From Yuukianura sp. NJ FZ-2021 (taxonomy: Eukaryota), in NCBI GenBank assembly GCA_046563655.1, contig CM102286.1, forward strand, positions 11,718,001 to 11,782,000: 64,000 nucleotides of DNA, read 5' to 3'. The position numbers were made by a program, and so were the translations under genes. Below, one piece after another: positions 1,280-40,900 of the stretch; the stretch's first letter is position 1; each line of letters begins with the position of its first letter. The notes under the pieces were generated by a model. That model was not told where the DNA came from and ran no database searches. It was given only the letters and a program-made list of their open reading frames with translations.

Positions 1280-4200
1280 CAAGTCGTCTCTTGAGTTCGG
1301 TTTCGTATGAGTACCCTTTGAGTTCAGAATTTGGAACTCCTTCAAAGAAACAGAAAAACAATAAAGAGGTATGAGTACTTGAAAAGTTAGGAGAGCAAAG
1401 GGAATCGTAGACTCTCCATCGTAAATCTTCAAGGAATTCATAGAGATTTCTCCATCTTTCAGTCACTTTTCCACTTGAAACAACTGTGGTTTTCATCATC
1501 TCCGGTTCAAAATGATGACAAATGTCAGTTCATGTCTCTTCTTTTCAAGTGGCTACATTTTTGAAAAAAACTTACGTTGACCAACACATTCAGGACTGAG
1601 AGAGATGTCGTCCAGGGCTATGTCGCCACCATATCGACGCCCACGAGTAGCCACAAATTCAATATAGTACCTACATAAAATTGAAAATGAGTACATCCAA
1701 GCTAAGTTTTACAATATTTCTAATTCATTTTTCGAATACTTCATATTCTTAAAAATTTTGCAAAAGTGACTTACAGGTGATCCAATTTTGGAAGTGGAAT
1801 TGACACTCTGCGCCAAATGTTTCCTGCTCTGTCTTTGTCAATGGCTATGAGGCGAGTGGACTTTGGAAATTTTGGATTTGACTCAATGACGTCAACGTGT
1901 AGCGAACCAATGTGTGGACCAAACATGTGATAGAAAAATCGGAGCTAAAATTCAAAAACAAGCCACTTAGAATTCACTCAGGACAAAAATTAAGATTAAT
2001 TTTGAAAATTTTCATACATAGACTTTTATTTCTAAATTTCCTCTGCGTCATACCTGACAACTATTGTTGTAAATTGAACCAGGAGGGAAAAATGGCGGTG
2101 GTGCAAACAACGTACTGCGCAGCATCGCTTTATCCATTATAAGACTATTGTTCACGTTCATGTGAACATTTAGGTAGTAGCCTGGAAATTTCACGAATCA
2201 AACCAAAATTACCAAGGTTCCTTGACAACCGAATTGTGTTGCCTACAACAGGTTGTCCACTAACTTATGGTTTTCAAACGTCTTGCTTCAAACAACTTTT
2301 ATGACAATGTAGGACCAATCCTATTTAGATTACATGCAAAAAATTACTGTAGAACGGCAGATTTGTTACTTTCAAGCAAATCTTAAAACTTCAAGTTAAT
2401 GTACAGCCTGGTATAGAAAAAGTTTTATTTTTGTTTGCGAACCTTGAAACTTACGGTCAGAGGTCAAAGGGCAAAGTAAGTTTACCTGACATATTTCGAA
2501 GATGACTATAAGTATGGTCACCGTCGGCTGGTCCAGTGATCCTATACGGTGACATTCTGTTTGTCCGTTCCCATTTAATATTCCGCTCACTCACGTTCGT
2601 CCAGCCGCACCATCCGTCCTCAAAGTTACAGCTCGTGTTTTTTGGCATTTTGTCTATTTCAGAAGAGTCAAGTACAAAAATTGCGTTATTTTTCCATTGA
2701 AAAAGTGATCTTTTCCTGTTTGAAAGTGTATCATCATTTCCTCATTATTTGCTGAGGGAAAAACAAAAGTTACATTTTTGTTCTCCTTCATAAGTGCAAA
2801 AGTTCAAAACCAATTTAATTGACTTCATTTTGTTGTCTGTGTAACCCTAAATCACTTATAACACTCTTTGACTTTTTCTAAGAATTGATTCCCTCACGTT
2901 TTTAACATTCGCCCGCTTTCTCTATTCGCTTGGTGTCGCTCATGTTTTGATGTCTTTCCTAAATAAAGTTCTTAAGAAAAGAGGAAACTTTTTTTTAAAG
3001 TTAGAGATGCTTCCTACACTTACTAATGAGCTCCTACCAGAAGATTTATATTCTAACTCCATAACAAAGTTAGGCAAAAACTGAGAGAAGAAAGTAAAAA
3101 AAAGTCTTCTCGAAGTCGAAAGAATAAGAACATGGAAAACGGCTTCTGTGCTTTCTTCTACGAGATTTTTTATTTGAAGTTTTACAATGTCGTCTTTCTT
3201 TTCATCAAAGTTTCAAGCAAGATTTACGTCTGTTCAGATTTCGTTTAAGTTTGTAAAGGAGTCAATTTACTAATTTGATTTTCAATTCGTTTAAAATATT
3301 CAAAAAAAAAACCAACAGCAACAAAGTTAATTCAAACGAAACCAACAAAGTTACTTCTTCCGCAAACAAGATCAAAAGAAGAAGAAGATGCAAACGGTTT
3401 GTATTTCCCGGAATAAGAAAACGAAACCATAAAAGCACTACTCTAAAAATTCAAAATGCGTTTGTGATCTCCTTTCCTTTGTCAATTATGCGCCTTTTTA
3501 CCAAAATGACGCGCGTGCTTTTTCGTTCATTGACTTTTGAGTCGATAAGGCTTTCATAAAAGATTCACCGCTTCACCACCACCACTTTGAACCATAAATA
3601 TTAATTCAACAAGAGAACATCATTTCGCCCATCGTTGTGGTAGCCTTGTGTTCGTTTTTGAGTTTTTCTGCCTCATGGCCTCGAGCCTCCATTTTCAAAA
3701 AACGTAAAGGATTTTTGGCACACTGTAATGGCTGCTCTAAGATGGAAATCTTATTTCCTTCCGACTTTGAAAGGCGGAACAGCATCATATACTGCCAGCA
3801 TATACTGTAGCAATTCCTCTAGAGAATCTATTTTCTAGAAGAAAATCCTAAAATATAGCGTAGGTTGAACAGCATTTGCCCAGCATCACCCAAACTGCTA
3901 CCAAAAAACATTTGTCAGGAACTGACGCGTTGTTTTGCAAAATTATGAACTGAGCCGTGCTTTCACCACACTTCCGTCTCTTATTCTCAAGGAAGCGTGA
4001 AAAGAACTATTAAAGCCTAGTGTTACAGGAAACACTTTCTCTCTCCAGTAACCTAATATTATGTTGTTCCAAACATGTTTTTAATTTTCTAGAACAAAGT
4101 AGTAAGCCATTTACTACACGCATCCCTCAAGTCCGGAATTTTTATGGCCTGCAATTCCTTTTTTTTCTAACTTTCAAAACAAAATTGCTGCTTAACTTCA

Positions 4201-7200
4201 ACAAGAGCTTACAGCAATATTGATATCCCAATTTTGTCGACCTTTTAAAAATTTAAAAATAAGAGAGAAGGAAGTTTTCTGAAATGTCTCCTGACTTACC
4301 ACAATTTTCTTCATCTTCACCATGTAGGCAATCTTTACTGAAGTCGCAGATTTGAGAACGCTCAATACAAATATCATTTCGACAACGGAACTCTGTTTGC
4401 GAACATTCAGATTTGTGCACGAGTGGCTCTGAAAATAATGAGTTAAATAAATTAGGAACAAATTAAGTCCAACGTGAGTCAAATTATATTTAATTTAGCC
4501 AGGAAGCCAAATTAACTTCGGGGTAAGAATGGCATTTAGACTTGTTTAGTTCCCGTGTCAAAAGAGTATTAGCTTGAATTGTGAAATCTCGTTCTTAAAG
4601 TAACGCGTACAAAGTTAATTAGAGCAAAGGGTAAGGCTTCCTTTTCATCTTCAAACACAAAAGTTGCTGAGAAAGCTCAGATTGAAGTCATCTCAAAGAT
4701 TAGGAAAAAAGAAAAGTTTTCTTGATGTAATGAAATGAAGAGTAAAAGAGAGTACTACAACAAATTATCATCTAAAGTTTTTGAGTGGGAAAAATTCAGT
4801 TTTGGCTATGTAGTAGATTGCATAAAATTAAAAAAAAGTTTCAAGAAACTTTCTGCTGAAGAACAAAGTTTCAAAGCTTCTCATTTTGTATATTCGACAG
4901 GATGATAATTTGAAATTAAGTAAATGAAACGCAACAAACCTACTAATTTTGTTGTTGTACTAATTACCTTGTGCTGTTATATGCTTCCAAATTTTTTGAT
5001 TACATTTTTTTTAAAAAACACTTACGTGGAAAGCAATTGACGAGTCGAATGTTGTCCACAGCAATGTGGGAAGGAACTTTTGAGCTTGGGATTACTTCCA
5101 AACTAATTTGAAATGGCTGCGTTGTTTTTCCTACGTTGCTCTTCAGACGTTCCCACCTGAAATTTGATACAATTGGTTTTGAATCCGAAAAGTTCCAAAT
5201 CCAGTTGTTTTGTTATTGATCTTTTGATAGTTTTAGAGTTTTCAACTTAAACTCTTTATTTCAAACGTAATTTGTAAAGTTTTTGAAGCCAAACATTTGA
5301 AATAAATGCGTCTGACTATGAGCTGCGCTGCTGTTAATACCATTAGTCCGATCAAAAACTTGCAGAGTTTAAAATTCCCACGGGACGAGATGGCTTTTGC
5401 CGTACTTTTCTTTTGAGCAGTCATGCGTTGAGTCTCTATATCATCTCCAACCTGAAAGCTCCAAGTCCAAACAGTACACAAGATTTTCGAACTTTTGAAC
5501 AAATTTTGTCCTCAGTGGAATCCGTTTCAACTCTACTTTTTGAAAGACCAGACTTAGCTTTTCTCTATTTTATCATCCTCAAGCAGGACACGAGGGGTCA
5601 TGAGCCTAGGAGTACTGAATACCATTCTAGATGACTGAAATCATCATTTCTACCGAAGTAGCAGAAACTCCATAAAGAAATTCCAAGTTTTCAAAATGGA
5701 TTTATTTCTCAAAAAATCCTTAGTTGAATAGGATCTTCTGGACTTTTGAAAAAAAAAGGGAAAAAAGAAAAGTTTCTTCGAAAACTTTTGTGCTTTCTCC
5801 TTTAACCACAGAATTTACTACTTTCTAGCCTCACTTTTATCTTCTTGTTTTTTTTTACTACGTTGTAGTATCTTTCGAAAAAGTCATTCGGAATTACCAG
5901 ATTACACGAACAGGTTTGGATTTATGAAAATGCAACCATCAGAAACTTTGACAGCTCACGATACTACTCATTCGCGAAAAAGTAGAGTGAAAGTCAAAAA
6001 AAAACGGAAAAGTAGATACTACAAGCACTAACCGCCATATGCTCGGTTTTGATTTGAAAGCGCGGTTCCAGGTACGATTTGATTTATTTGTTATAAGCTA
6101 TACTGAGTGGTAAGGGAATGGCACTTTTTTCAAAATGGCCGCCGTCCTTATCAGCAATTGCATCTGCATAAGACGTTTTTTGCTCATGCGCAAAAACGTT
6201 TTTTGCGCATGACGTCATCAACCCCCCCCCCCACTTCCGCACCCCCCATACCCCCACTATATATCCCTCCCCCTATATCCTCCCCCCCCACGTGACCCCC
6301 AAGTCACGTGCCCCCCCTCCCCCAAACCACAAAATTGAAATTTATTTAGAAAAATATTTTTAAAAAAAAAACAATTTTTGAAAAAAATCAATTTTTGAAA
6401 AAACTCATTTTTTGAGAAAAAAAAATTCCTGAAATTTGAAATTTGGAAAATGTTTTGAAACTTGGAAATTGAAATCAAAAGTGAAGGTAAATTTCCCCAG
6501 ATTACCCCAACTTGAAATGTCAAGGTCACGCCAATTTTTTCAAGGTCATTCCAATTTTTTCAAGGTCATGCGCGCCCTTTGCATTGGCATATTAATTTGC
6601 GTCAGGTCATGCGCGCCCATTTGCAATTTCATGTAAATTCTTAAGGTCATTTCAATTTTTTTCAAGGTCAAGCAAGCATTTTGAAATTGAAATGTCCCGG
6701 GAGCCCTTTTCTGGGTTCCCGGGACCAAGAAGATCAAGTATGGTGCATGGGCAGTATATTCGGCTGGTCAGAGGATTAGTGGGGTGTTACTCGGCCACTG
6801 CTTAATGAAACCGCATACCACTTCCGGCTAGCCTGCCAAAACAAACCGCAAACCACTTCCGGTTAGCCTGCCAAAGCAAACCGCAAACCACTTCCGGTCA
6901 ACTTGCCCGCGCATATGCACGTACAAATCCATTTGAATTTTCACTTGGTTTGCAAAACAACATCAAGGTCAAAGGTCAAACCGAGTGACGCGTCAGTGCT
7001 ACACGCGTCACAATAGACTTGTCACTACGCTCGGGGGCGTGGCTAGCCGCCCGACTCTTTGCCCAATCAACGTTGAGCATTTCAAAAGTGGGCGTGGCTC
7101 GAGGAAATGGAGACATTTGATTGGCCGAGACTTGCCGCTACACTCGGGGGTGTGGCCAACTGGCCAATGTGCGTTTACCATTTCAAAAAGGGGCGTGGCC

Positions 7201-10200
7201 TCAGAAAATGGAGACATTTGATTGGTCGACAAAACTTGTCACACATTAGGCCCGCCCTCAAGCCATAGTGTTGTCATTTCCTGCTTAAACTCAGACAAGT
7301 CGCCCGGGCGGACTGGTCAGACACAAAAGGGCCATGTTTACCTGTCGGTGGTTACATTGCAACTGCCCCGTCTTCACCCCTTGCCACGCGACACCTGCAT
7401 TTTTTGCAGTTTTTTACGTCATCGGCTGTGCCTATATAAGGCCGTGACGTTGCCACAAGCGGCTCAGTGTTTCACTAACTTCTGCGTCGGTAACATTACC
7501 TTCTCCTACAAAAGTTTAAGTGAAAGTGTTAATTTGTTGTTGTTCAAATCGCCGTCAGCAATGGCCGTCGTTGCTAAACCCAGTTCGCGATACATTATCG
7601 TGGATAGTGCTTTAAACAGCAGGTTTTACCCAGAAAATAAACCAAACGAGTTTCGTGCCAATTTGGATCCTGTGCTTGATGGCTGGAAGCAACCACTGGA
7701 GGTTGCCATTTCTGGAATGCACTACACGGCAGCACCCAAACCCCAGCGTAATATTTTTGGCCACAGTGAGGGTGACAATGTCATAAACGTAACCGAGCAC
7801 TTGGAGGTGACGGTTACAATCCCAAAAATGGATGGAATTGTGAAGTTTTTCGGCCATGTCAACAAGGAATTGAAAAAATTTGACCGAAAAATTGTCATTT
7901 CATACACAAACAAGGTCTTTTCACTTACCAACGACGAAAAGGACCACGTGGTTACCATGACGGCCGAGTATGCTCGAGCCTTTGGCTTTGATACCAACAC
8001 GTTCCCAAATGGAGTGACGCATGGCCATGAATATTCTGAAGCTGTTTTTGACGCAATTGATCCAACAATTAACATGACGCTACACATTTTCCAAGACAAG
8101 GTCAACTTGGCAACCGTGGTAGAACCAAAAGAAAAGACAGTGGAAGGCCTGATTCAGGCCATGAACGCCGCCCTGGCTCCATTTCAAATTACATTCAAGT
8201 ACTCTGAGGACGAGGCTGTACTCAAATACACCCGAGAATCTACACCCAATTACATTACGACCCTCTCGCCACTTTTGGACAAAATATTTGGACTGCCACT
8301 TGGAGCTGCATTCAAAGGATTTAGCCAAACGAATCCAGCCAAGGCCGAAATTGATCTCGAAGTGACGTCGAAACATCTCCTTGTCGTGTGCGATCTTGCG
8401 GAATATACCCAGTTTGGAGACAAGGTGCTGCCTTTGATTGGAATATTCCCACAAGGCGATCAGGATGGCAAGTCAGTCGACTTGCAAGTCAATGTACCGC
8501 GTTATTTTGCGGTAAAAGGACAGTCGATGATCAATTCCATTTACGTTCAACTTTTGGACGAAAATCTGGCACCAATTCCTGAAGCACACAGCGCAACCCA
8601 ACTTGTTCTTCACGTCAGAAAATCCACCTAAATTGTCCAAAAACCAGTTATTAACGGCCACAAAAGACAAAATCTGTTCAGTTGACGTTTGACTTGCGAC
8701 CGAGCAACACGAAAACAGTGCAAAACAGTGTAAAATTTACAACAAAACCCTTAAAAACGTCGTCAGTATCAACTTTGTGCTCGTCGAAGCAACATCTAGT
8801 GCATTTTTTGTGTAAAAATGGAAGTTGACGAACCAGGAAACTCTGATTTTAGCAACAATAGTGACAGTTTGACGCCAAAAAATGGCGAAAACAAGTGCGA
8901 CAATGCAAGTTTAGCCACAAAAACGATATCATCGCCCGCTATTGTTCAAAAAATGTCCGCGGAATTGCCCAAAAAGAAGGTCAAAAAGCGATCGCGGCCC
9001 AAAAAAGTGTCAAATTTGAAGCAAAATTTAACCAAAAATGGGTCGAGCAGTACAGATTCAGACGAAAATCTTTGCAACAATTGCAGAAAAATGCAAATTT
9101 CTAAAGACAATAGCAGAAAACCAGAAAAATCTGCCAAAAGTGGGCGAAAAAGGCGTAAAATTGTTGCAAAATTGCAAAATTTGGCCCAAAAAGCTATAAA
9201 AGGGAGCCTATTCCACAACCATTAGTCAGTCTGCGTTTGCATTTCGACGAGTAAACACGTGTCTAGTGCTCAGTGCTACCCCGAAATTTACACCTTAACC
9301 CTTGAAAATAGTGCTCAGTCGTCATTTGGAAACCGTCAAAGCAACATCTCGTGCGTGTTTTTGTGCTAAAATGGAGGTTAATGTGCCAGTGAATTCGAAA
9401 TTGGTCACCACAAGTGCCAAATTTGACTTTTTTTCAAAACCAACCACGGATGTGTCGTTCATTTTGGGCAATTACCTAGTAGTGAAACCCTATTCACCAT
9501 CAACAGACACTAATCCAATCTACTTTCGAGTGGAACAACCAGCGCATGGTTACTTGGACCTGTCGGATTCTTTTTTAAAACTAGTGTTTTCAATTAGAAA
9601 AAGTGATGGGACGCCACTCAACGATGCAGACCAAATTGCGCCTGAAAATTTATTTTTTCATGCGTTCATTGAGGATTTCAAAGTGCATGTCAACAATTGC
9701 CAAATAATTGCCCAAGGATACCGAGCATACTCGTATGAAGCCTGGATGCTCACTCAACTGTTCAACGGCATTGGAACCAAATGCAGCACATTGTCAAAAG
9801 TGGGTTATTATGCCGGAGATGTCATGGACACCTACGACGACACAAACCCGAGTTACAAGGCGCGATTAAACTTGGCAAAAAATAGTCAATCATTTGAAAT
9901 GATTGGGCGCCCGTTTGTCGGCCTATTTACGACCAAAAAGTTATTCCCGCACAACACTCAATTCAGTTTTGAAATTAAAAAGAGCGATGCATCCTTTTGC
10001 TTGCGAGGACCGGCCACTACCACCAAATACAAAATTACAGTCGAATCGGCCGAGTATTATATTCGCCAAGTGAATCCCAGTGAAAAAATAGTGACTCAGA
10101 TCCGGCAAGGGTTTGCAAAAAACAAAGTGGCCAACTATTCATACGATCAGGCCCACATGCGTTTAGAATATGTGTCGAAAAATCTCAGTTCGGTTGATTT

Positions 10201-13200
10201 GACAAATGCCTACCACAGTACAATGCACCCAAAACTTCTTTTAGTTGGCATTTTGGAACTAGAAGTTTACGAAGGGAAAAAAGTTGAAAAGTCACCATTC
10301 AACTTTAAACCCCACGGTGTTAGCCGTCTGTTGCTAAAATTTGAGCAAAAGCCCTTGGTCTATCAAGAAATGATTTTCAAAGACAAAAATTACATGCTTG
10401 CCTATCACAATTTGTGCAAGTTGGTTTCTCGTCAGACTGAAGGAAATGACATTTCCTACGACAAGTTTGTAAACGGAAATGCAATCTTTGCATTTGACGT
10501 CCAGGATTTGTGGACTGACGGGTACAATGCGACCAGATCTGGACAATACGGATTGGAAATTGATTTTGAAACCCCGACGACAAAGGATTTGGTGGTTCTC
10601 ATCATCGGAATCGAAGACGAAACTTTACAAATTGATGGAAATAGAATTACTGGACTTGCATCCAGCAAAAAAATATTCTTTTAAAAATAACTTTATTGTT
10701 AATCTTCATTAGCCCTGTCTCAAGTCTTTTTTGTTGTAAACTTTTCAAAATTTGAAAAATAAACTAATCTCCTCACTGAAAAAAAAATATGGTGTCTTTT
10801 ATAAATAAAAGTAGAAAAAAATATAAAAAAACAGAAATTAAAAAAAAGGACAAAAAAGAAACCAAAAACTGCATTTATGTTTTTTGGTTTTCCATCAAGT
10901 TGTTGGTGTTGGCACAAATTGCCGATTATATTTTATACGGTTATTCAAAGTCAGGTTCATGCCGTACGTTTTTCTGATAAGACGTTTCCGTAATTTAGTT
11001 CAACATAGTTGTGTAAGCGTAAGCTTGCGGGCATACCAGTGACAAACGCCAAGCCTGCGTATATATTGTTCCGTAAACGCTTGAGCTACATAAAAATTAT
11101 TTGGAGGCAGAGTGAATCGAACTCACGGCCCCTACCTAAGATGTTATCGAAATGGACGCTCTGACCAGTCCGCCCGGGCGACTTGTCTGAGTTTAAGCAG
11201 GAAATGACAACACTATGGCTTGAGGGCGGGCCCAATGTGTGACAAGTTTTGTCGACCAATCAAATGTCTCCATTTTCTGAGGCCACGCCCCTTTTTGAAA
11301 TGGTAAACGCACATTGGCCAGTTGGCAACACCCCCGAGTGTAGCGGCAAGTCTCGACCAATCAAATGTCTCCATTTCCTCGAGCCACGCCCACTTTTGAA
11401 ATGCTCAACGTTGATTGGGCAAAGAGTCGGGCGGCTAGCCACACCCTTGAGCGTAGTGGCAAGTATATTGTGACGCGTTTAGCACTGACGCGTCACTCGG
11501 TTTGACCTTTGACCTTGATGTTGTTTTGCAAACCAAGTGAAAATTCAAATGGATTTGTACGTGCATGTGCACGGCAAGTTGGCCGGAAGTGCTTTGCGGT
11601 TTCTTTTGGCAGGCTAGCCGGAAGTGGTTTGCGGTTTCTTTTAGCCGCGGCCGAGTGGCACCCAACTATTCCTCTCACCAGCCCAAAATACTGCCCATGC
11701 ACCATACTTGGTCTTCTTGGTCCCGGGAACCCAGAAAAGGGCTCCCGGGACATTTCAATTTCAAAATGCTTGCTTGACCTTGAAAAAAATTGAAATGACC
11801 TTAAGAATTTACATGAAATTGCAAATGGGCGCGCATGACCTGACGCAAATTAATATGCCAATGCAAAGGGCGCGCATGACCTTGAAAAAAAATTGGAATG
11901 ACCTTGAAAAAATTGGCGTGACCTTGACATTTCAAGTTGGGGTAATCTGGGGAAATTTACCTTCACTTTTGATTTCAATTTCCAAGTTTCAAAACATTTT
12001 CCAAATTTCAAATTTCAGGAATTTTTTTTTCTCAAAAAATGAGTTTTTTCAAAAATTGATTTTTTTCAAAAATTGTTTTTTTTTAAAAATATTTTTCTAA
12101 ATAAATTTCAATTTTGTGGTTTGGGGGAGGGGGGGCACGTGACTTGGGGGTCACGTGGGGGGGGGAGGATATAGGGGGAGGGATATATAGTGGGGGTATG
12201 GGGGGTGCGGAAGTGGGGGGGGGGGGGTTGATGACGTCATGCGCAAAAAACGTTTTTGCGCATGAGCAAAAAACGTCTTATGCAGATGCAATTGCTGATA
12301 AGGACGGCGGCCATTTTGAAAAAAGTGCCATTCCCTTACCACTCAGTATAGCTGTTATATAGAAGTAAGGGGAGTTAGATTTCTTTGTGTTACCTGGCGA
12401 TTTTGGAATTGTCGATTTTAGGATTGTCGATTATAGCATTGTCGATTTTTGAAATTGTCGATTTTTGGAATTGTCGATTTTAGAATTGTCGGTTTAGGGA
12501 TTGTCGATTTTAGAAATTGTCGATTTTTGAAATTGTCGATTTTAGGATTGTCGATTAAAGCATTGTCGATTTTTGAAATTGTCGATTTTTGATTGTCGAT
12601 TATTGGATTGTCGATTATTGGATTGTCGGTTATGACCTGCTACGGAAAGCGATGCGGGAAATCAAGTGTTTACGATTAAGTCATCACAAAAGTGAGACGC
12701 AGTTTAGTGACATGCTACTGAACTCTAGCATGGAATTCAATATTTACATTTTATGCAAATACGACCATGAGCAGACCATAAATGACATGAATCGGTTTAT
12801 TTCCTTTTAAGCCATTTTCACATTATCGTGTAATGTCAGTACATGTAGAATTACTGGCAGAATTGTCATTCCGAAAGTTAATTCACTTTTGTGCTTGGTT
12901 TTCTAAAACAAAACTACACGCATGCTGTGATTGCATGAAATTCTGACGCAGCGTTTCACTTTATAGTGATTGCAAACGGTTTAGAACGCAGTAGTAATTT
13001 CAAGAGAAGTTAGTTTTTTTACACTTACATGTTGTTGTTGTTTCCCAATTTGGACAGTGGAACCCAGGCGGTATGATCCTTAGTGTGCATGAGGAACTTA
13101 AAAGTTCCATCATTCATATTGTTCATGTGGACAAGTGCTTCCAAGTGGCACTGCGCATCCGCAGCAGAGAACCAAGGACTTTTCAGATGATATACAGCCG

Positions 13201-33255: not shown

Positions 33256-35581
33256 TCATAAACTATGTATGACTGGTTTCTTGTAGCCACAGCCACACAA
33301 TTCCTCATCTGTGATGGATGAACAGAACAACATATAGTGATCATTGTTTATTTAACATAACCCGCAATACTCGATTACGTTTACACAACGTGGTGTTGAG
33401 CATCACCCTTCGGCAAACTAACAGAAAGTTCGGAAAAGCTTTTTCAAAAATTGCCTTCTGTACCATAATTTTGGCACCGCAATTTTTGGACAATGTTAAA
33501 ACATGCCGCCCTGCTGTCATGGTTTGTAAAAGTTCCTGGAGGCAAGTCGACGAAATTGGCAACCAAGGTTTGTTGAATTTGATCTTCTTTAACAGGTTGG
33601 GTAATACCTCACGTTTTTTTTTTGAATTTGAAAAAAAGTGTTCTTTCAATTCAGGGCATCGTAGTAAAAACAATACAGCCAAACTTTTAAAACTTTGCAT
33701 ACGCATCGGTAGCAATTTTTCGGGTTGGTACTAACATTGATACCAATTTTTGTTTTTGTTTTTCTTTATTTTTCTGTCAACAAGCGAGGTAGTACTCAAC
33801 CTGTTAAAGAAAATCTTTTCGATGCCAAAGAACTTTGTTGGCAACAGTTAAATATTTATTTCACCAAAATGTTATGTTTGGAAACACAACCCAGCCGTGG
33901 TCAACGCATCAACGACTTAAAATGATTTAGGGTAAAAAATATTTTTAGTATTCGTAACCAGGCATTAACGGACGGTCACTAACGGCCCGGTATACTAACG
34001 GACGGTCACGAACGGACGGTCACTAACGGACGTTCACTAACGGACAGTCACAAACGGACGGTCACTAACGGACGGTCACCAATGGACGTTCACCAACGGA
34101 CGGGCACTAACGGACGGTCACTACCGGACGGTCACCAATGGACACGTACTCTAACGGACACTTGCTCTAATGGACGGTCACTAATGGACATTCGCACCTT
34201 GGTTCAGACAATGAAAATTTTCAGATTCTTGAAGCACAGTAACAATGAAATCAGCACTGAAATCGAGTTGACAACATTATTTACTGATTAATTCAGTAAA
34301 TATGGTTTTAGTTTCCCGCGCCGAAGGCGCGGTGTTAGGTTATTTAAATCGGCAATAGTGATTAGGTTATAGGTTAGGTTGATTATAGGTTAGGTTATTG
34401 CTGCCAGGTTAGGTTAGGTTCAAAAATCAGTTAATTTTCAGTGCTTGAAGCAACCACCCTAACCCTGTGCCAATGTCCATTAGTGACCGTCCATTAGAGT
34501 AAGTTTCCGTTAGAGTACGTGTCCATTGGTGACCGTCCGGTAGTGAACGTCCGTTAGTGCCCGTCCGTTGGTGAACGTCCATTGGTGACCGTCCGTTAGT
34601 GACCGTCCGTTGGTGAACGTCCATTGGTGACCGTCCGTTAGTGACCGTCCGTTTGTGACCGTCCGTTAGTGAACGTCCATTGGTGACCGTCCGATAGTGA
34701 CCGTCCGTTAGTATATCGGGCCGTTAGTAACCGTCCGTTCGAGTCCGGGAATCTTAGTATTTAGCAACAAAAATAATGCTATTGGAGTATATCTTACTTT
34801 CAAGTGTGTAGCCCATAGTCAAGATGAAGTTGCTCGGTCTCTGTGATGTTTCAATTGGAGTTGACCTGTGACCTCTGACACCGCGGGTGACATTCGACTG
34901 AATCAAAAGTTCATCAATCACCAGTGAGAAAAGCAGAGACCTTGCTTCCGGTTTATAGAAGTTCTCAACAACAGACTCGGTAGAGTACCATTGCATCAGA
35001 ACTGGTAGTACATCTACTTGGATACTCCGGTGACCTCCATTTTGACATTTGTATTTCAGTGGAATGATTTCCGGATTGAGCGGAATCAACTGTTCGGTGG
35101 TTATGCCTTCACAAGACATAGACATCATTGATTTGCACTGTCGTTTTGATCGTTTCTCCTTGAGTGATTTGGTAGTGGTTGAAGTCAATTTGTGATGACG
35201 CAAATTTTGAAACATTGTGTTCCACATGGGGCCCATTACATTTGAATTAATTAAACTGGAATTGTGATTCATTTCCTCTGAAGCGGCACAACGGAACTCA
35301 GAGTGCTCGTCAAAGTCTAGCGTCAAATTTGCATAAATGAGGTGGTTGTCGGGGTGAAAGTAGAGGAACGCATCATCGACTCTGAGCACCATGGCGACCG
35401 ACCTCTTCTGATTATCGTAAGTGTCCACTTCTGATTCGAAGAATAGATGAACAGATAGATTAACTTTACGTATCTGATGTGAAGTGGTTGATTCAACAGG
35501 TTTCTGGGGTGAAACAAATTGAAGAGAAAGCAACAGGTAGAGCAAAAAGAAATTCTTTACAAAAAGCTTTCTGTTAATCAT
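33256..35581 (-). CDS. Orphan secreted protein with weak TGF-beta-prodomain-like motifs; exon 34798-35581 plus a possible short last exon 33256-33308 (unspliced ORF stops at 34754)
   Basis: A ~0.8-kb ORF in AT-rich DNA with a hydrophobic signal peptide (FFLLYLLLSLQFVSP). A GTAAG donor at 34797 is in phase with an acceptor at 33309, giving ...TLE-NEELCGCGYKKPVIHSL*. Confidence 0.45.
33953..34753. mobile_element. Foldback-type non-autonomous DNA element with inverted arrays of a 15-bp unit
   Basis: Tandem AACGGACGGTCACT(A) at ~33965-34190 and its reverse complement at ~34470-34740. Central CCGCGCCGAAGGCGCGG hairpin and (TTAGG)n. Flanking direct repeat TTAGTATT at 33945-33952 and 34754-34761. 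Confidence 0.7.
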
Positions 35582-37992: not shown

Positions 37993-40900
37993 TCAACGGC
38001 TTCGGCTCCGACTTCGACGTCTACGACTCTTTTCCTTTTCCCGCCTTCGTGAAACTGGAGGACTTCCAGGTTTCGGCAATGGTGACACACGTCGACGGCG
38101 CTTAGATTCCTCCTCTCCCCTTTGCGGAGTTGGAGGACTTCCGGATCTGCGTAGTGATGATGAACGCCGTCGACGACTCTTCGTTTCCTCTCCAAGCCTC
38201 CGTGGAGGACTTTCAGATTTGCGAATGGATGGTGAGGGTGACCTGCGTCGACGACTCTTTGATGCCTCAGGATTTCTTCGTGGAGGAGTTTGGGATTTTT
38301 GCAGCGATGGAGATCGGCGGCGACGACTCTCCGTTTTCTCCGTATCTCTTCTTGGAGGACTTTCTGATTTACGAGGTGACGGTGATTGGCGTCGACGACT
38401 CTTCGTTTTCTCCATATCTCTTCTTGGAGGACTTTCCAATTGACGTGGTGACGGTGATCGGCGTCGACGACGCTTCGGTTCCTCCACATTCCTTTGCTGA
38501 GGACTTTGAGATTTCGGTGGTGATGGTGAAAGACGTCGACGACGACTCCTCTCCGCCTCCCTTCCTGGAGGAGTTTCAGGTTTGGGCAATGATGGAGATC
38601 GGCGTCGACGACTCTTCGTTTCCTCCGTAACCCTTCTCGGAGGACTTTGCGATTTCGCTGGAGATGGCGACCGGTGACGACGACGACTCTTTTCCTCCAT
38701 ATCCCTTCTTGGAGGACTTTCCGATTTCGCTGGAGATGGTGACCGGTGACGACGACGATTCCTTTGCTCCATATCCCTTCTTGGAGGACTTTCCGATTTC
38801 GCTGGAGATGGTGACCGGTGACGACGACGACTCCTTTCCTCCATATCCCTTCTTAGAGGACTTTCGGATTTACGAATGGATGGTGATGGTGAACGGCGTC
38901 TCCTTTCCTCTCGCAATGCTGTAGGACTTTCCGCTTTTGGCAATGATGGTGACCGGCGTCGACGTTTCGTTTCCTCATGTTGCCTTTGCTGTGCCGTCTC
39001 GAAGTCTGCTGAATGTTGCCGATTTCTTCGGCGTCGCCGTTCTTGTACGTCCCGAAAGGGTTGCGTGGCTAGCCTACGATAAGAAATAATATTATCCACT
39101 ACAGGGTGCAAAAAAAGTTTGGGAGACTGACAAATAAGTTGGCAAAGAAAATTAAAGACTATTGTGGACAGGAACCTGTTAGACAGGTCTTTCCTTGTTA
39201 GAAATTCTTAATTTAAAAAAGTTTTTAAACTTTTAATTATTCAACTATTTGTTAACACAGAACTAAACTTTTTCGAACCTGCTAAGCCTTTCTCCGATTT
39301 CGCCTTCTTCACTTGGTTCGCGTCTTTCTCGCTTCACTTTGACAGCTTTCTTTTTACCGGCAGCTTTTTTGACTCGTTTAGAACTTTTCTTCTTCTTGCG
39401 AGGCGGACTGTCTGCACTGCTTGAAGAATCAGAAGAGTCAGATGACGAAGAAGAATCCGACGAGGACGATGAACTCGAACTAGAACTGGAACTACTAGAA
39501 CTTGATTCTGAAGATTCCGTTTCCGCATTGCCCGGTGTAGTTTGCGGAGCAATCATGGCCATTGGTTTTGGATGACGTTTCAAATGCTCCCGAAGCTCGT
39601 CACTGAAAAAATTAAGCCGTTATAATACTTCCTAAATTCGTGGTCCTTTCCTATACTTTTAAATAAAACTTACGTGAGTCCTCCCAAACCAATAGAGGTG
39701 AAGAAATTAATAGCAAAACGAGTATTCTTTGGATGATCTCTCGGGAACAGTCCTTCGAAACAGTGTACTAAAGTTGAATCGTTGAGACGATTATTCAGTT
39801 TTTGCAACCCCATGTATTCCGAGAGTTCCTAAAGTTAGATAAGGTCTCAGTAGCATCTCAAAGTGTCATGTTAAAGCCTTTTAACATTTCTTTAATGTCG
39901 TGAAATTTTTTAATGTCTGTTACCTGGAACAATATTTTGATGAAAATACGACTGGAACTTGTTGTATCCTCTTCTGTAAGGCGTAAAGTTGTTAACACCG
40001 TCCAGGAAATCGAGTCAGTAAAAAGAAGATGTGCGAAAAACTTTGAGACATTTCTCAACTTGTTCGTATCCAACCGATGAACTACACAAAAAATGTGTCA
40101 TTTATGACAGTGTACCAAACAATCAGTGAAGTCTGATAGATTGTCCTACCTGTTTCGTAAGTTTCTTTGAAAATTGTTTCAAATGGTGTAACGTAGATTC
40201 GATTGATAGCACAAAATCGACCAGCCATCAACCCGAAGAATTTCTCATAGGTACGTTGTTGTGCACAGCAGTCAAGGATCATGTGACACAGCTCCACTTC
40301 TTGCCCCTCCTTCATGTTCATTTTGAGTAACTTGTGGCAACACTCCTCGTAGTCCAATGACGATTGAATTGTCAAATAAATAGTTCGCCTCAACGCAACC
40401 TACAAGTAAATCAAATGAAAACAAATTAGTCATCTATCAAAAGAAAGTCTCAACTGATGATACCAGTAGTAGTCAAGTACCAAGTTAGTTTCAGTTTTGT
40501 CGATGATTTGCGAGTTTTCTTGGCCTCCTTCCTCATTTTCGTCCTCGTCTTCGGCTTCTTCTTCATCCTCATCCTCATCCGCATCATCCCCTTCGTCTTC
40601 TGATTCGTCTAAAATTTCCTTTCTCAAGGCTGCATACTTCTCCTCACTAGCGAGATAATCCGGATCCGACTTGAAAACATCTAGAAAAATTCAGAACGCA
40701 AGTTGTATTTTCATTAGTGCCAATGCCAAAAGACGAATTTATTTAAAAAAAATTCACTTACTGAGTATCTCTTGAGCTTCTGTAGCATCATCTAGTGTTA
40801 CCAGATGAGTAAATTGGTCTGTCTCTTCTACCAGATCACAGCCTTCAGCAAGAGATGGAAAATCTTTGAATTTGTCCTTCCTCACCTGACGAAATAAAAG

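Follow-up and report, generated by a model that had tools for sequence, protein, structure and literature searches.

We analysed 64,000 nucleotides (nt) of the forward strand of contig CM102286.1 (positions 11,718,001 to 11,782,000) in the GenBank assembly GCA_046563655.1 of Yuukianura sp. NJ FZ-2021. This whole stretch is referred to below as the window. In its first part lies an element of Polinton/Maverick type that is bounded by long terminal inverted repeats and by a short target-site duplication. Between the repeats it holds three open reading frames (ORFs), the last of which encodes a predicted double jelly-roll major capsid protein. In window coordinates, the main parts are the following (aa, amino acids; pI, isoelectric point):

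6090-6095, no strand: left target-site duplication, GTTATA, directly outside the left end
6096-12353: the whole element, 6,258 bp, with its ends taken from inverted-repeat detection
6096-7321, plus strand: left terminal inverted repeat, 1,226 nt, with the 5' start AGCTATACTGAG
7561-8631, plus strand: 356-aa penton-like (minor capsid, PX-type) ORF, labelled by position and pairwise similarity
8818-9225, plus strand: 135-aa protein with a pI of 10.1 and the C-terminal end ...KGSLFHNH
9371-10684, plus strand: predicted 437-aa double jelly-roll major capsid protein of Polinton/adintovirus type, assigned by profile, model and Foldseek
10685-11159, no strand: unique non-coding stretch of 475 nt between the capsid gene and the right repeat
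11160-12353, minus strand: right terminal inverted repeat, 1,194 nt
12354-12359, no strand: right target-site duplication, GTTATA, directly outside the right end

The element begins with AGCT and ends with AGCT, and AG...CT termini are a hallmark of Polintons. The two GTTATA copies match at six of six letters, at positions that are fixed by the ends of the repeats, and the chance of such a match is about 1 in 4,096. Parts of this DNA occur in five public runs, none of them listed as RNA; contigs of four of the five (X1-X4) were aligned to the window, three of these runs being from one sample (organism A) and one from another study (organism B). Contigs from two of the runs (X1, X2) connect position 6091 to 12370 through 13 other letters. 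Compared with the window, these contigs show an uninterrupted paralogous site, in which a single GTCAAA takes the place of the element and its two GTTATA copies; the site is also one G shorter in a nearby run of Gs. From this empty site it follows that the edges of the element are exact and that the 6-mer is a true duplication, in line with the AG...CT ends and perfect 6-bp duplication described in the initial annotation of this DNA. It also follows that the element lies within another repeat.

The repeat flanks of the element cover 5600-6095 and 12354-12900. A joint from 6063 to 12653 is present in contigs from all four runs, and the summed contig depth is by far highest at 12432-12675; such depths are sums over contigs and give neither a copy number nor a comparison between repeat and core. 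The host is an animal, since the window contains exons of a MIF4G protein, CBF/Mak21, Menin (two exons), a DGAT-type acyltransferase and Eapp, all within 40908-63596. The element is integrated in the chromosome of this animal as a 6,258-bp unit with a 6-bp duplication.

The two repeats together make up 2,420 of the 6,258 bp, which agrees with the earlier estimate of about 1.2 kb for each arm and 39% of the length. Over 1,189 shared columns they have 30 mismatches (97.5% identity) and five gap events. Four of these gaps are differences in homopolymer length, while the fifth is an extra 36-nt tandem unit in the left arm. The mismatches are unevenly spread: there is none in the outer 638 nt (6096-6733 against 11720-12353), and all 30 fall in the inner 588 nt. 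The outer ends of the arms are either homogenised or very young; alternatively, the inner halves come from different parents. Given this uneven spread the arms are no simple clock.

The core between the repeats is 3,838 bp long and its three plus-strand ORFs contain 2,793 coding bases together. That these ORFs (356, 135 and 437 aa) are co-oriented and uninterrupted, as had been noted earlier, is plain from the sequence. The longest open frame of the core has 461 codons, while in 500 mononucleotide shuffles the longest frame has a mean of 107 and a maximum of 209 codons.

The best characterised of the three products is the 437-aa protein. A word-index search found five relatives with 21-44% identity. 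A profile built from the protein and these five was then searched against a library of 1.84 billion representative proteins, where it finds 12,317 proteins at E<=1e-3, 3,263 of them with E<=1e-30. The protein itself gives no family match, and two of 50 aligned family members match the Pfam family PF21738 (double jelly-roll-like domain, DJR-like_dom). For one homologue, P0001, the nearest ESM Atlas clusters are eukaryotic (arthropod and nematode), with PF21738 on 15-24% of their members, and one cluster of the capsid family is of gastropod origin. Searching IMG/VR with the capsid alignment found nothing, and neither did the search of a prokaryote genome collection.

By sequence, nothing significant is found for the 437-aa protein in the PDB (hexon, E 0.37). 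The AlphaFold2 model, made from a 50-row alignment, has a mean predicted local distance difference test score (pLDDT) of 88.8 and a predicted template modelling score (pTM) of 0.87. With this model Foldseek gives 255 PDB matches at E<=0.001, led by the Sputnik virophage capsid protein 3j26_A (E 7e-16, template modelling score, TM, 0.64); among the other leading matches are the capsid proteins of Singapore grouper iridovirus (SGIV) and mavirus as well as PBCV-1 Vp54. Cotesia sesamiae Mombasa bracovirus supplies the best match in BFVD, an uncharacterised protein (E 2e-23, 20% identity, a TMq of only 0.38), and entries from MELD virus and adintovirus are within the top 20. Bracoviruses carry Maverick insertions. 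By its modelled fold, the 437-aa protein belongs with the double jelly-roll capsid proteins of Polinton/adintovirus type; the model and the Foldseek matches bear out what the initial annotation had proposed for it.

Several contigs from metagenomes carry related capsid genes and help to read the two other ORFs. The last 115-128 residues of the 356-aa ORF resemble ORFs that lie directly upstream of the capsid gene in three such loci, namely L004 (E 2e-8), L002 (tblastn, 1.7e-9) and L006 (E 2e-4). In addition, its N-terminus is weakly similar to the N-terminus of a 141-aa ORF in L006 (E 0.32), and about 180 extra residues in the middle may be an inserted domain. In Polintons, the penton protein PX was placed one gene from the capsid gene by Krupovic and co-workers (PMC4028283). 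There is no Pfam or PHROGs match to the 356-aa ORF, and its one PDB profile hit is not significant (E 1.5). Since its fold model failed, we call the ORF penton-like: the earlier label 'penton' draws on position and weak pairwise similarity rather than on a fold.

The 135-aa protein is acidic in its N-terminal third and very basic in the remainder, and its pI confirms that it is the basic ORF it had been called. A basic ORF has the equivalent position in L001, L002, L004 and L006, and the C-terminal motif LKGSxF is common to the proteins of the window, L001 and L002. It is likely to be a core protein that condenses DNA.

No gene was found for the enzymes of a Polinton. We searched 94 stop-to-stop frames of at least 40 aa, from both strands of the element, with family profiles at E<=0.1, and none of them (0 of 94) matches a polymerase, integrase, ATPase or protease family. 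Matches to other families number ten, in nine of the 94 frames, and every one of them is below its cut-off. Further, no Polinton enzyme is found among the 13 other long frames of the window. The earlier observation that no recognisable remnant of these genes is present holds at this threshold. After the stop codon of the capsid gene there are 475 nt of non-coding DNA, where L004 and L006 instead have an adenain-like ORF. A stretch within it, 11090-11140, has a tRNA-like look, which we rejected as ARAGORN and Rfam give no match.

One of the metagenome contigs, L001, is 3,944 nt long and also has inverted arms (3-454 and 3365-3795), which are 83% identical over 456 columns; additional repeat units reach the right end of the contig. 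Between the arms there are about 730 nt with tandem repeats and no frame above 77 codons, then a 132-aa basic ORF behind a TATAAAAAG box, and a 436-aa capsid gene whose product is 45% identical to the capsid protein of the window. No match to the penton-like ORF is found in L001 at E<=10. The true ends of L001 are cut by the contig, and a target duplication is therefore out of view.

In other loci the related capsid genes occupy ordinary Polinton-type gene rows. L004 has, in this order, a penton-like, a basic, a capsid and an adenain-like gene, while in L006 the ORF directly after the capsid gene gives a weak match to Peptidase_C5 that does not reach the cut-off (E 0.0016). In the window and in L001, the two members of the capsid clade described below whose downstream DNA can be seen, no further gene lies between the capsid gene and the right repeat; in the more distant L004 and L006 a protease gene directly follows the capsid gene. 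No non-coding similarity was found between the element and the metagenome loci. Two observations on these loci are reported in their own right. Positions 1228-1746 of L006, a Polinton-type contig, encode a homologue of the TATA-binding protein (Pfam TBP, E 3e-24); it lies upstream of the capsid module and adjoins an ORF that by eye resembles an integrase fragment, with no Pfam match. In L002, tandem units of about 125 nt (210-470) lie between the penton-like and basic ORFs and end in motifs that contain TCAGT, as if promoter modules had been multiplied.

In a quick maximum-likelihood tree of 52 capsid proteins, the window protein falls in a clade of six with those of L001, P0001, P0002, P0003 and P0006. 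The clade has a support of 100 in the Shimodaira-Hasegawa-like approximate likelihood ratio test (SH-aLRT) and a stem length of 1.1, and it is nested among ordinary members of the family. Its other four members are on contigs of 2.6-6.0 kb, the one of P0002 being 5,991 nt long, to be compared with 3.9 kb for L001. A clade of short contigs with two architectures is suggestive.

The element is not alone. In the four runs X1-X4 we find 835, 589, 302 and 103 contig pieces, respectively, in all classes of likeness from at least 99% to below 90%, with the repeated flanks counted in. In each run all 30 of 30 bins are covered, and over a single position there are up to 10 different contigs at the 3' end of the capsid gene and seven in the penton-like ORF. 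The element is thus a multi-copy, diverged family, found under both organism labels, and the same is true of the flanking repeat. A single copy had been named as part of the finding that would make it an ordinary deletion derivative, and this does not apply, since many diverged variants are seen over all its parts in the four runs; within the window there is no further copy. Both junctions between unique DNA and repeat are bridged by diverged pieces, namely record 25 of X4 (6833-7367) and record 22 of X3 (10841-11205, about 89% identical). Weak joints from 8649 to 10737 (side 21) and between 8457 and 10545 hint at rearranged copies; they are not used as evidence here.

The diverged copies bear signs of coding constraint. 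Among the 27 pieces listed inside the element, 12 of the 15 coding ones are free of gaps, as against 0 of the 12 non-coding ones (Fisher p = 4e-5). Of the single changes in the two large ORFs, the 15 with the best support comprise seven synonymous and eight non-synonymous ones, a rough ratio of 0.32 (one-sided p 0.03). The constraint holds for the family and is not demonstrated for the short form. The ratio of non-synonymous to synonymous changes among copies, which had been proposed as a check, gives a positive answer at the level of the family only.

The non-coding parts of the element are rich in motifs that resemble promoters and enhancers. These readings are motif matches only. The features in question are:

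6520-6978, plus strand: array of five TCAAGGTCA motifs and one AGGTCAAAGGTCA, within the left repeat
6798-6907, plus strand: tandem units of 35-36 nt with CACTTCCGG, three copies in the left arm and two in the right
7060-7229, plus strand: about 101-nt tandem units that carry GGGCGTGG and CCAAT motifs, within the inner portion of the repeat
7433-7468, plus strand: TATATAA box at 7433, followed at 7464 by an initiator-like TCAGT, both ahead of the first ORF
8733-8767, plus strand: AAATTTACA ... TCAGT promoter-like module, ahead of the basic ORF
9283-9319, plus strand: second AAATTTACA ... TCAGT module, ahead of the capsid gene
10758-10763, plus strand: first AATAAA motif past the capsid stop codon
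11503-11927: counterpart of the TCAAGGTCA/AGGTCAAAGGTCA array in the right arm, with five TCAAGGTCA and one AGGTCAAAGGTCA

The modules of the basic ORF and of the capsid gene both run AAATTTACA ... TCAGT ... ATGGA(A/G)GTT, and about 100 nt are alike between them. An AATAAA between the stop codon and the next ORF is found after neither of the other two genes, so that 10758 is the sole case; a single AATAAA would yield three transcripts with a common 3' end. Taken together, the three genes are probably expressible. The description of the genes as promoter-equipped, given in the initial annotation, is correct in that a module resembling a TATA box and an initiator (Inr) stands before each ORF, and it stays a prediction from motifs.

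On the minus strand, a TATATAC (11066) and a TCACTG (11041) lie about 27 nt apart (11039-11066) with no ORF behind them. The TATATAC is just inside the right repeat, and its spacing to the repeat is about that of the left TATA box. Perhaps a leftward gene block has been lost and the pair is its orphan promoter, which would point to an origin by deletion.

In the repeats, ten of the 12 matches to TCAAGGTCA in the window are within the two arms, while 0.59 are expected in the whole window. For AGGTCAAAGGTCA there are two matches, one in each arm, against an expectation of 0. Both motifs resemble nuclear-receptor response elements, and they might confer tissue-specific, perhaps gonadal, expression; CACTTCCGG is presumably an ETS site. 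Each repeat also has an open frame of 69 codons (7008-7217 and 11264-11473). It runs outward over the 101-nt units and matches no family, and we do not regard it as a gene.

Elsewhere in the window, two other repeats can be seen. At 33967-34739, inverted arrays of a 14-nt unit (GTCCGTTAGTGACC-like) surround a spacer of about 270 nt. At 38161-38958 there is a repeat with a period of 72 nt that is rich in GC (53%) and has long open frames on both strands, with no Pfam match.

What, then, is this element? We consider it likely that it is a non-autonomous derivative of an adintovirus-like Polinton/Maverick, which has the capsid module only and is mobilised in trans. It would have kept two things: the ends on which the machinery of a helper acts, that is the 1.2-kb inverted repeats with AG...CT, and a self-contained structural module with the penton-like, the basic core-like and the double jelly-roll capsid protein. 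An autonomous relative would supply the rve-type integrase that made the 6-bp duplication, and probably also the protein-primed polymerase that copies the element from its ends. The short form most likely arose when enzyme genes were lost from a full-length element. The initial annotation already suggested that the short form entered the chromosome as such, through enzymes acting in trans, and this is supported by the exact 6-bp duplication, by the empty paralogous site, by the finding that no remnant of an enzyme gene is present, and by capsid ORFs that are intact and have promoter-like modules of their own. The further suggestion made there, that the element is either a satellite supplying its own capsid or one part of a multipartite genome, goes beyond what these data show. 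A non-autonomous family derived by deletion explains everything seen here. The capsid genes may persist through being used, as in a satellite, or only because this copy is young; we put the odds at about even.

Some results weigh against a trans-mobilised capsid module. A helper with matching ends was not seen, and the window holds none; searching IMG/VR with the 29-nt terminus also found nothing. Here the element is known from DNA alone. For the 356-aa ORF, none of 1,476 database candidates of near length and none of 97 shorter ones is a homologue, and its fold model, from a 4-row alignment, is unusable (pLDDT 37.9). Further, the listed pieces (32 of 1,917) and variants (40 of 1,070) were chosen by the tool, which makes the counts biased samples. 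Finally, the signs of constraint may stem from autonomous relatives, as the pieces are not assignable to short or full-length copies.

A more far-reaching possibility, plausible but less likely than not, is that the element belongs to a persistent satellite lineage. Short capsid-only elements would then be under selection and build or contribute their own coat, while polymerase, integrase, ATPase and protease come from an autonomous polintovirus. The element does encode its own capsid protein, in an intact ORF, and its dependence on a helper we infer from the missing enzymes. L001 is a second repeat-bounded element with no enzyme, having only the basic ORF and the capsid gene; its capsid protein and that of the window are within one six-row clade with a long stem, both genes are the last before the right repeat, unlike those in L004 and L006, and the other clade members come from short contigs as well. 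The promoter-like module ahead of each gene and the coding pieces of diverged copies, which are mostly in frame, point in the same direction. However, two architectures are few, L001 does not reveal its true ends or a target duplication, and short contigs are the rule in metagenomes anyway. The constraint among copies may reflect full-length relatives, and the possible orphan promoter that points inward at the right end hints at a lost gene block, i.e. at deletion. In addition, a coat without its own packaging ATPase and protease lacks a described precedent in the group. In its strongest form, the claim would be that capsid-only mini-Polintons are evolutionarily persistent satellite viruses of animal polintoviruses, with their own capsid clade, at least two architectures, enhancers borne by the repeats and their own coat; this we regard as rather doubtful.

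Three other explanations have less in their favour. The element could be the structural segment of a multipartite polintovirus, with one or more enzyme segments that share its inverted repeats. In its favour are no more than the clean division of functions and the fact that the ends are intact, together with bidnaviruses as a bipartite, Polinton-related precedent (for the bidnavirid polymerase see PMC11161782). Neither the window nor IMG/VR nor the related loci show a partner with the same repeats, and L001 has no penton-like gene, so that stepwise loss fits better than a fixed division of labour; we think a multipartite genome improbable. It seems just as improbable that the element persists through a benefit to the host, with capsid expression, or convergent transcription from the repeats, interfering with related viruses. 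The enhancer-like arrays do point inward from both ends, and the minus-strand TATA/Inr-like pair at the right end would give RNA antisense to the capsid gene. This is a reading of motifs alone, and a young, repeat-bounded element in many copies looks selfish rather than domesticated. An assembly artefact, in which both ends of one full-length Polinton were collapsed or joined into a chimera, is the least credible of all. Assemblies easily collapse at long inverted repeats and in multi-copy families, and none of the listed contigs spans the whole element. Against this, both junctions of unique DNA and repeat recur in contigs from other runs (those bridged by the X4 and X3 records above), the core is continuous, unbroken coding sequence, and the flanks match the empty paralogous site exactly.

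Preferring a derivative that is mobilised in trans, we can compare it with the known systems. Like Polintons/Mavericks and adintoviruses it has the 6-bp duplication, long inverted repeats and a capsid protein with a double jelly-roll, separated by one gene from a penton-like ORF. Of the marks of descent from Polintons, the inverted repeats, the duplication, the AG...CT ends and the Polinton-clade capsid protein are all present, and for a single jelly-roll penton gene the position and the pairwise similarity fit. It differs in that it is without polymerase, integrase, ATPase and protease, is 6.3 kb long compared with about 15-20 kb, and has 39% of its length in repeats. None of the features of an autonomous Polinton, i.e. 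the polymerase, the rve integrase and the packaging ATPase with the adenain-type protease, is found. As a Polinton is defined by its protein-primed polymerase together with its integrase (PMC5499653), the element is a derivative and not a strict Polinton under that definition. A 17.5-kb Polinton from a lizard has the 6-bp duplication and repeats of 584 bp, and the same lizard survey speaks of an 'apparent absence of nonautonomous copies' of Polintons (PMC3014272). In a survey of Mavericks in vertebrates 96% of the loci are degraded, and the passages of it that bear on this point mention no short repeat-bounded form (PMC8097293). In the full-text literature that was searched we found no description of a capsid-only Polinton; most subscription journals, the founding papers and Repbase lie outside that scope.

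In its intact ends, its target duplication, its lack of a transposition enzyme, its several copies and its mobilisation in trans, the element resembles non-autonomous DNA transposons. Such transposons have random coding sequence or none, while the element keeps a complete virion module that is apparently ready for expression. Satellite viruses and virophages have their own capsid genes and depend on another virus for replication, and the element would do likewise if its genes are used. Virophages, however, bring an ATPase, a protease and replication genes of their own and rely on giant viruses, whereas the element would need a sibling polintovirus for all but the coat.

In helper-dependent or defective adenovirus genomes, the terminal repeats and cis signals are retained, and a helper carries out replication and packaging. 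These genomes are without coat genes, while the element keeps only coat genes and is integrated in the germline. Bidnaviruses give, within the wider group, a precedent for a segmented genome with terminal repeats; they differ in their single-stranded DNA, their parvovirus-type capsids and the presence of a polymerase, and for the element no partner segment is seen. Transpovirons are linear, about 7 kb long, have inverted terminal repeats and were derived by gene loss from the Polinton-like world (PMC5499653). They are the mirror image of the element: they lost the morphogenetic module and kept a gene derived from helicase and polymerase, and the element did the reverse (PMC5499653). The element itself has virion genes and no helicase, while a transpoviron is marked by a helicase fused to an inactivated polymerase and by having no virion genes.

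Most scenarios for how the double-stranded DNA viruses of eukaryotes arose have Polintons at their root, and yet hardly anything has been observed of the virions and life cycle of Polintons. A family that has discarded all its enzymes and kept an intact, separately promoted coat module would show that trans-mobilisation occurs in Polintons, which implies an active helper in the same animal. Should the element prove to be a young copy produced by simple deletion, it would remain a clean marker that Polintons were recently active. If, on the other hand, selection acts on the coat genes of the short form, the element would be the first polintovirus parasite of satellite type, the mirror of the transpovirons.

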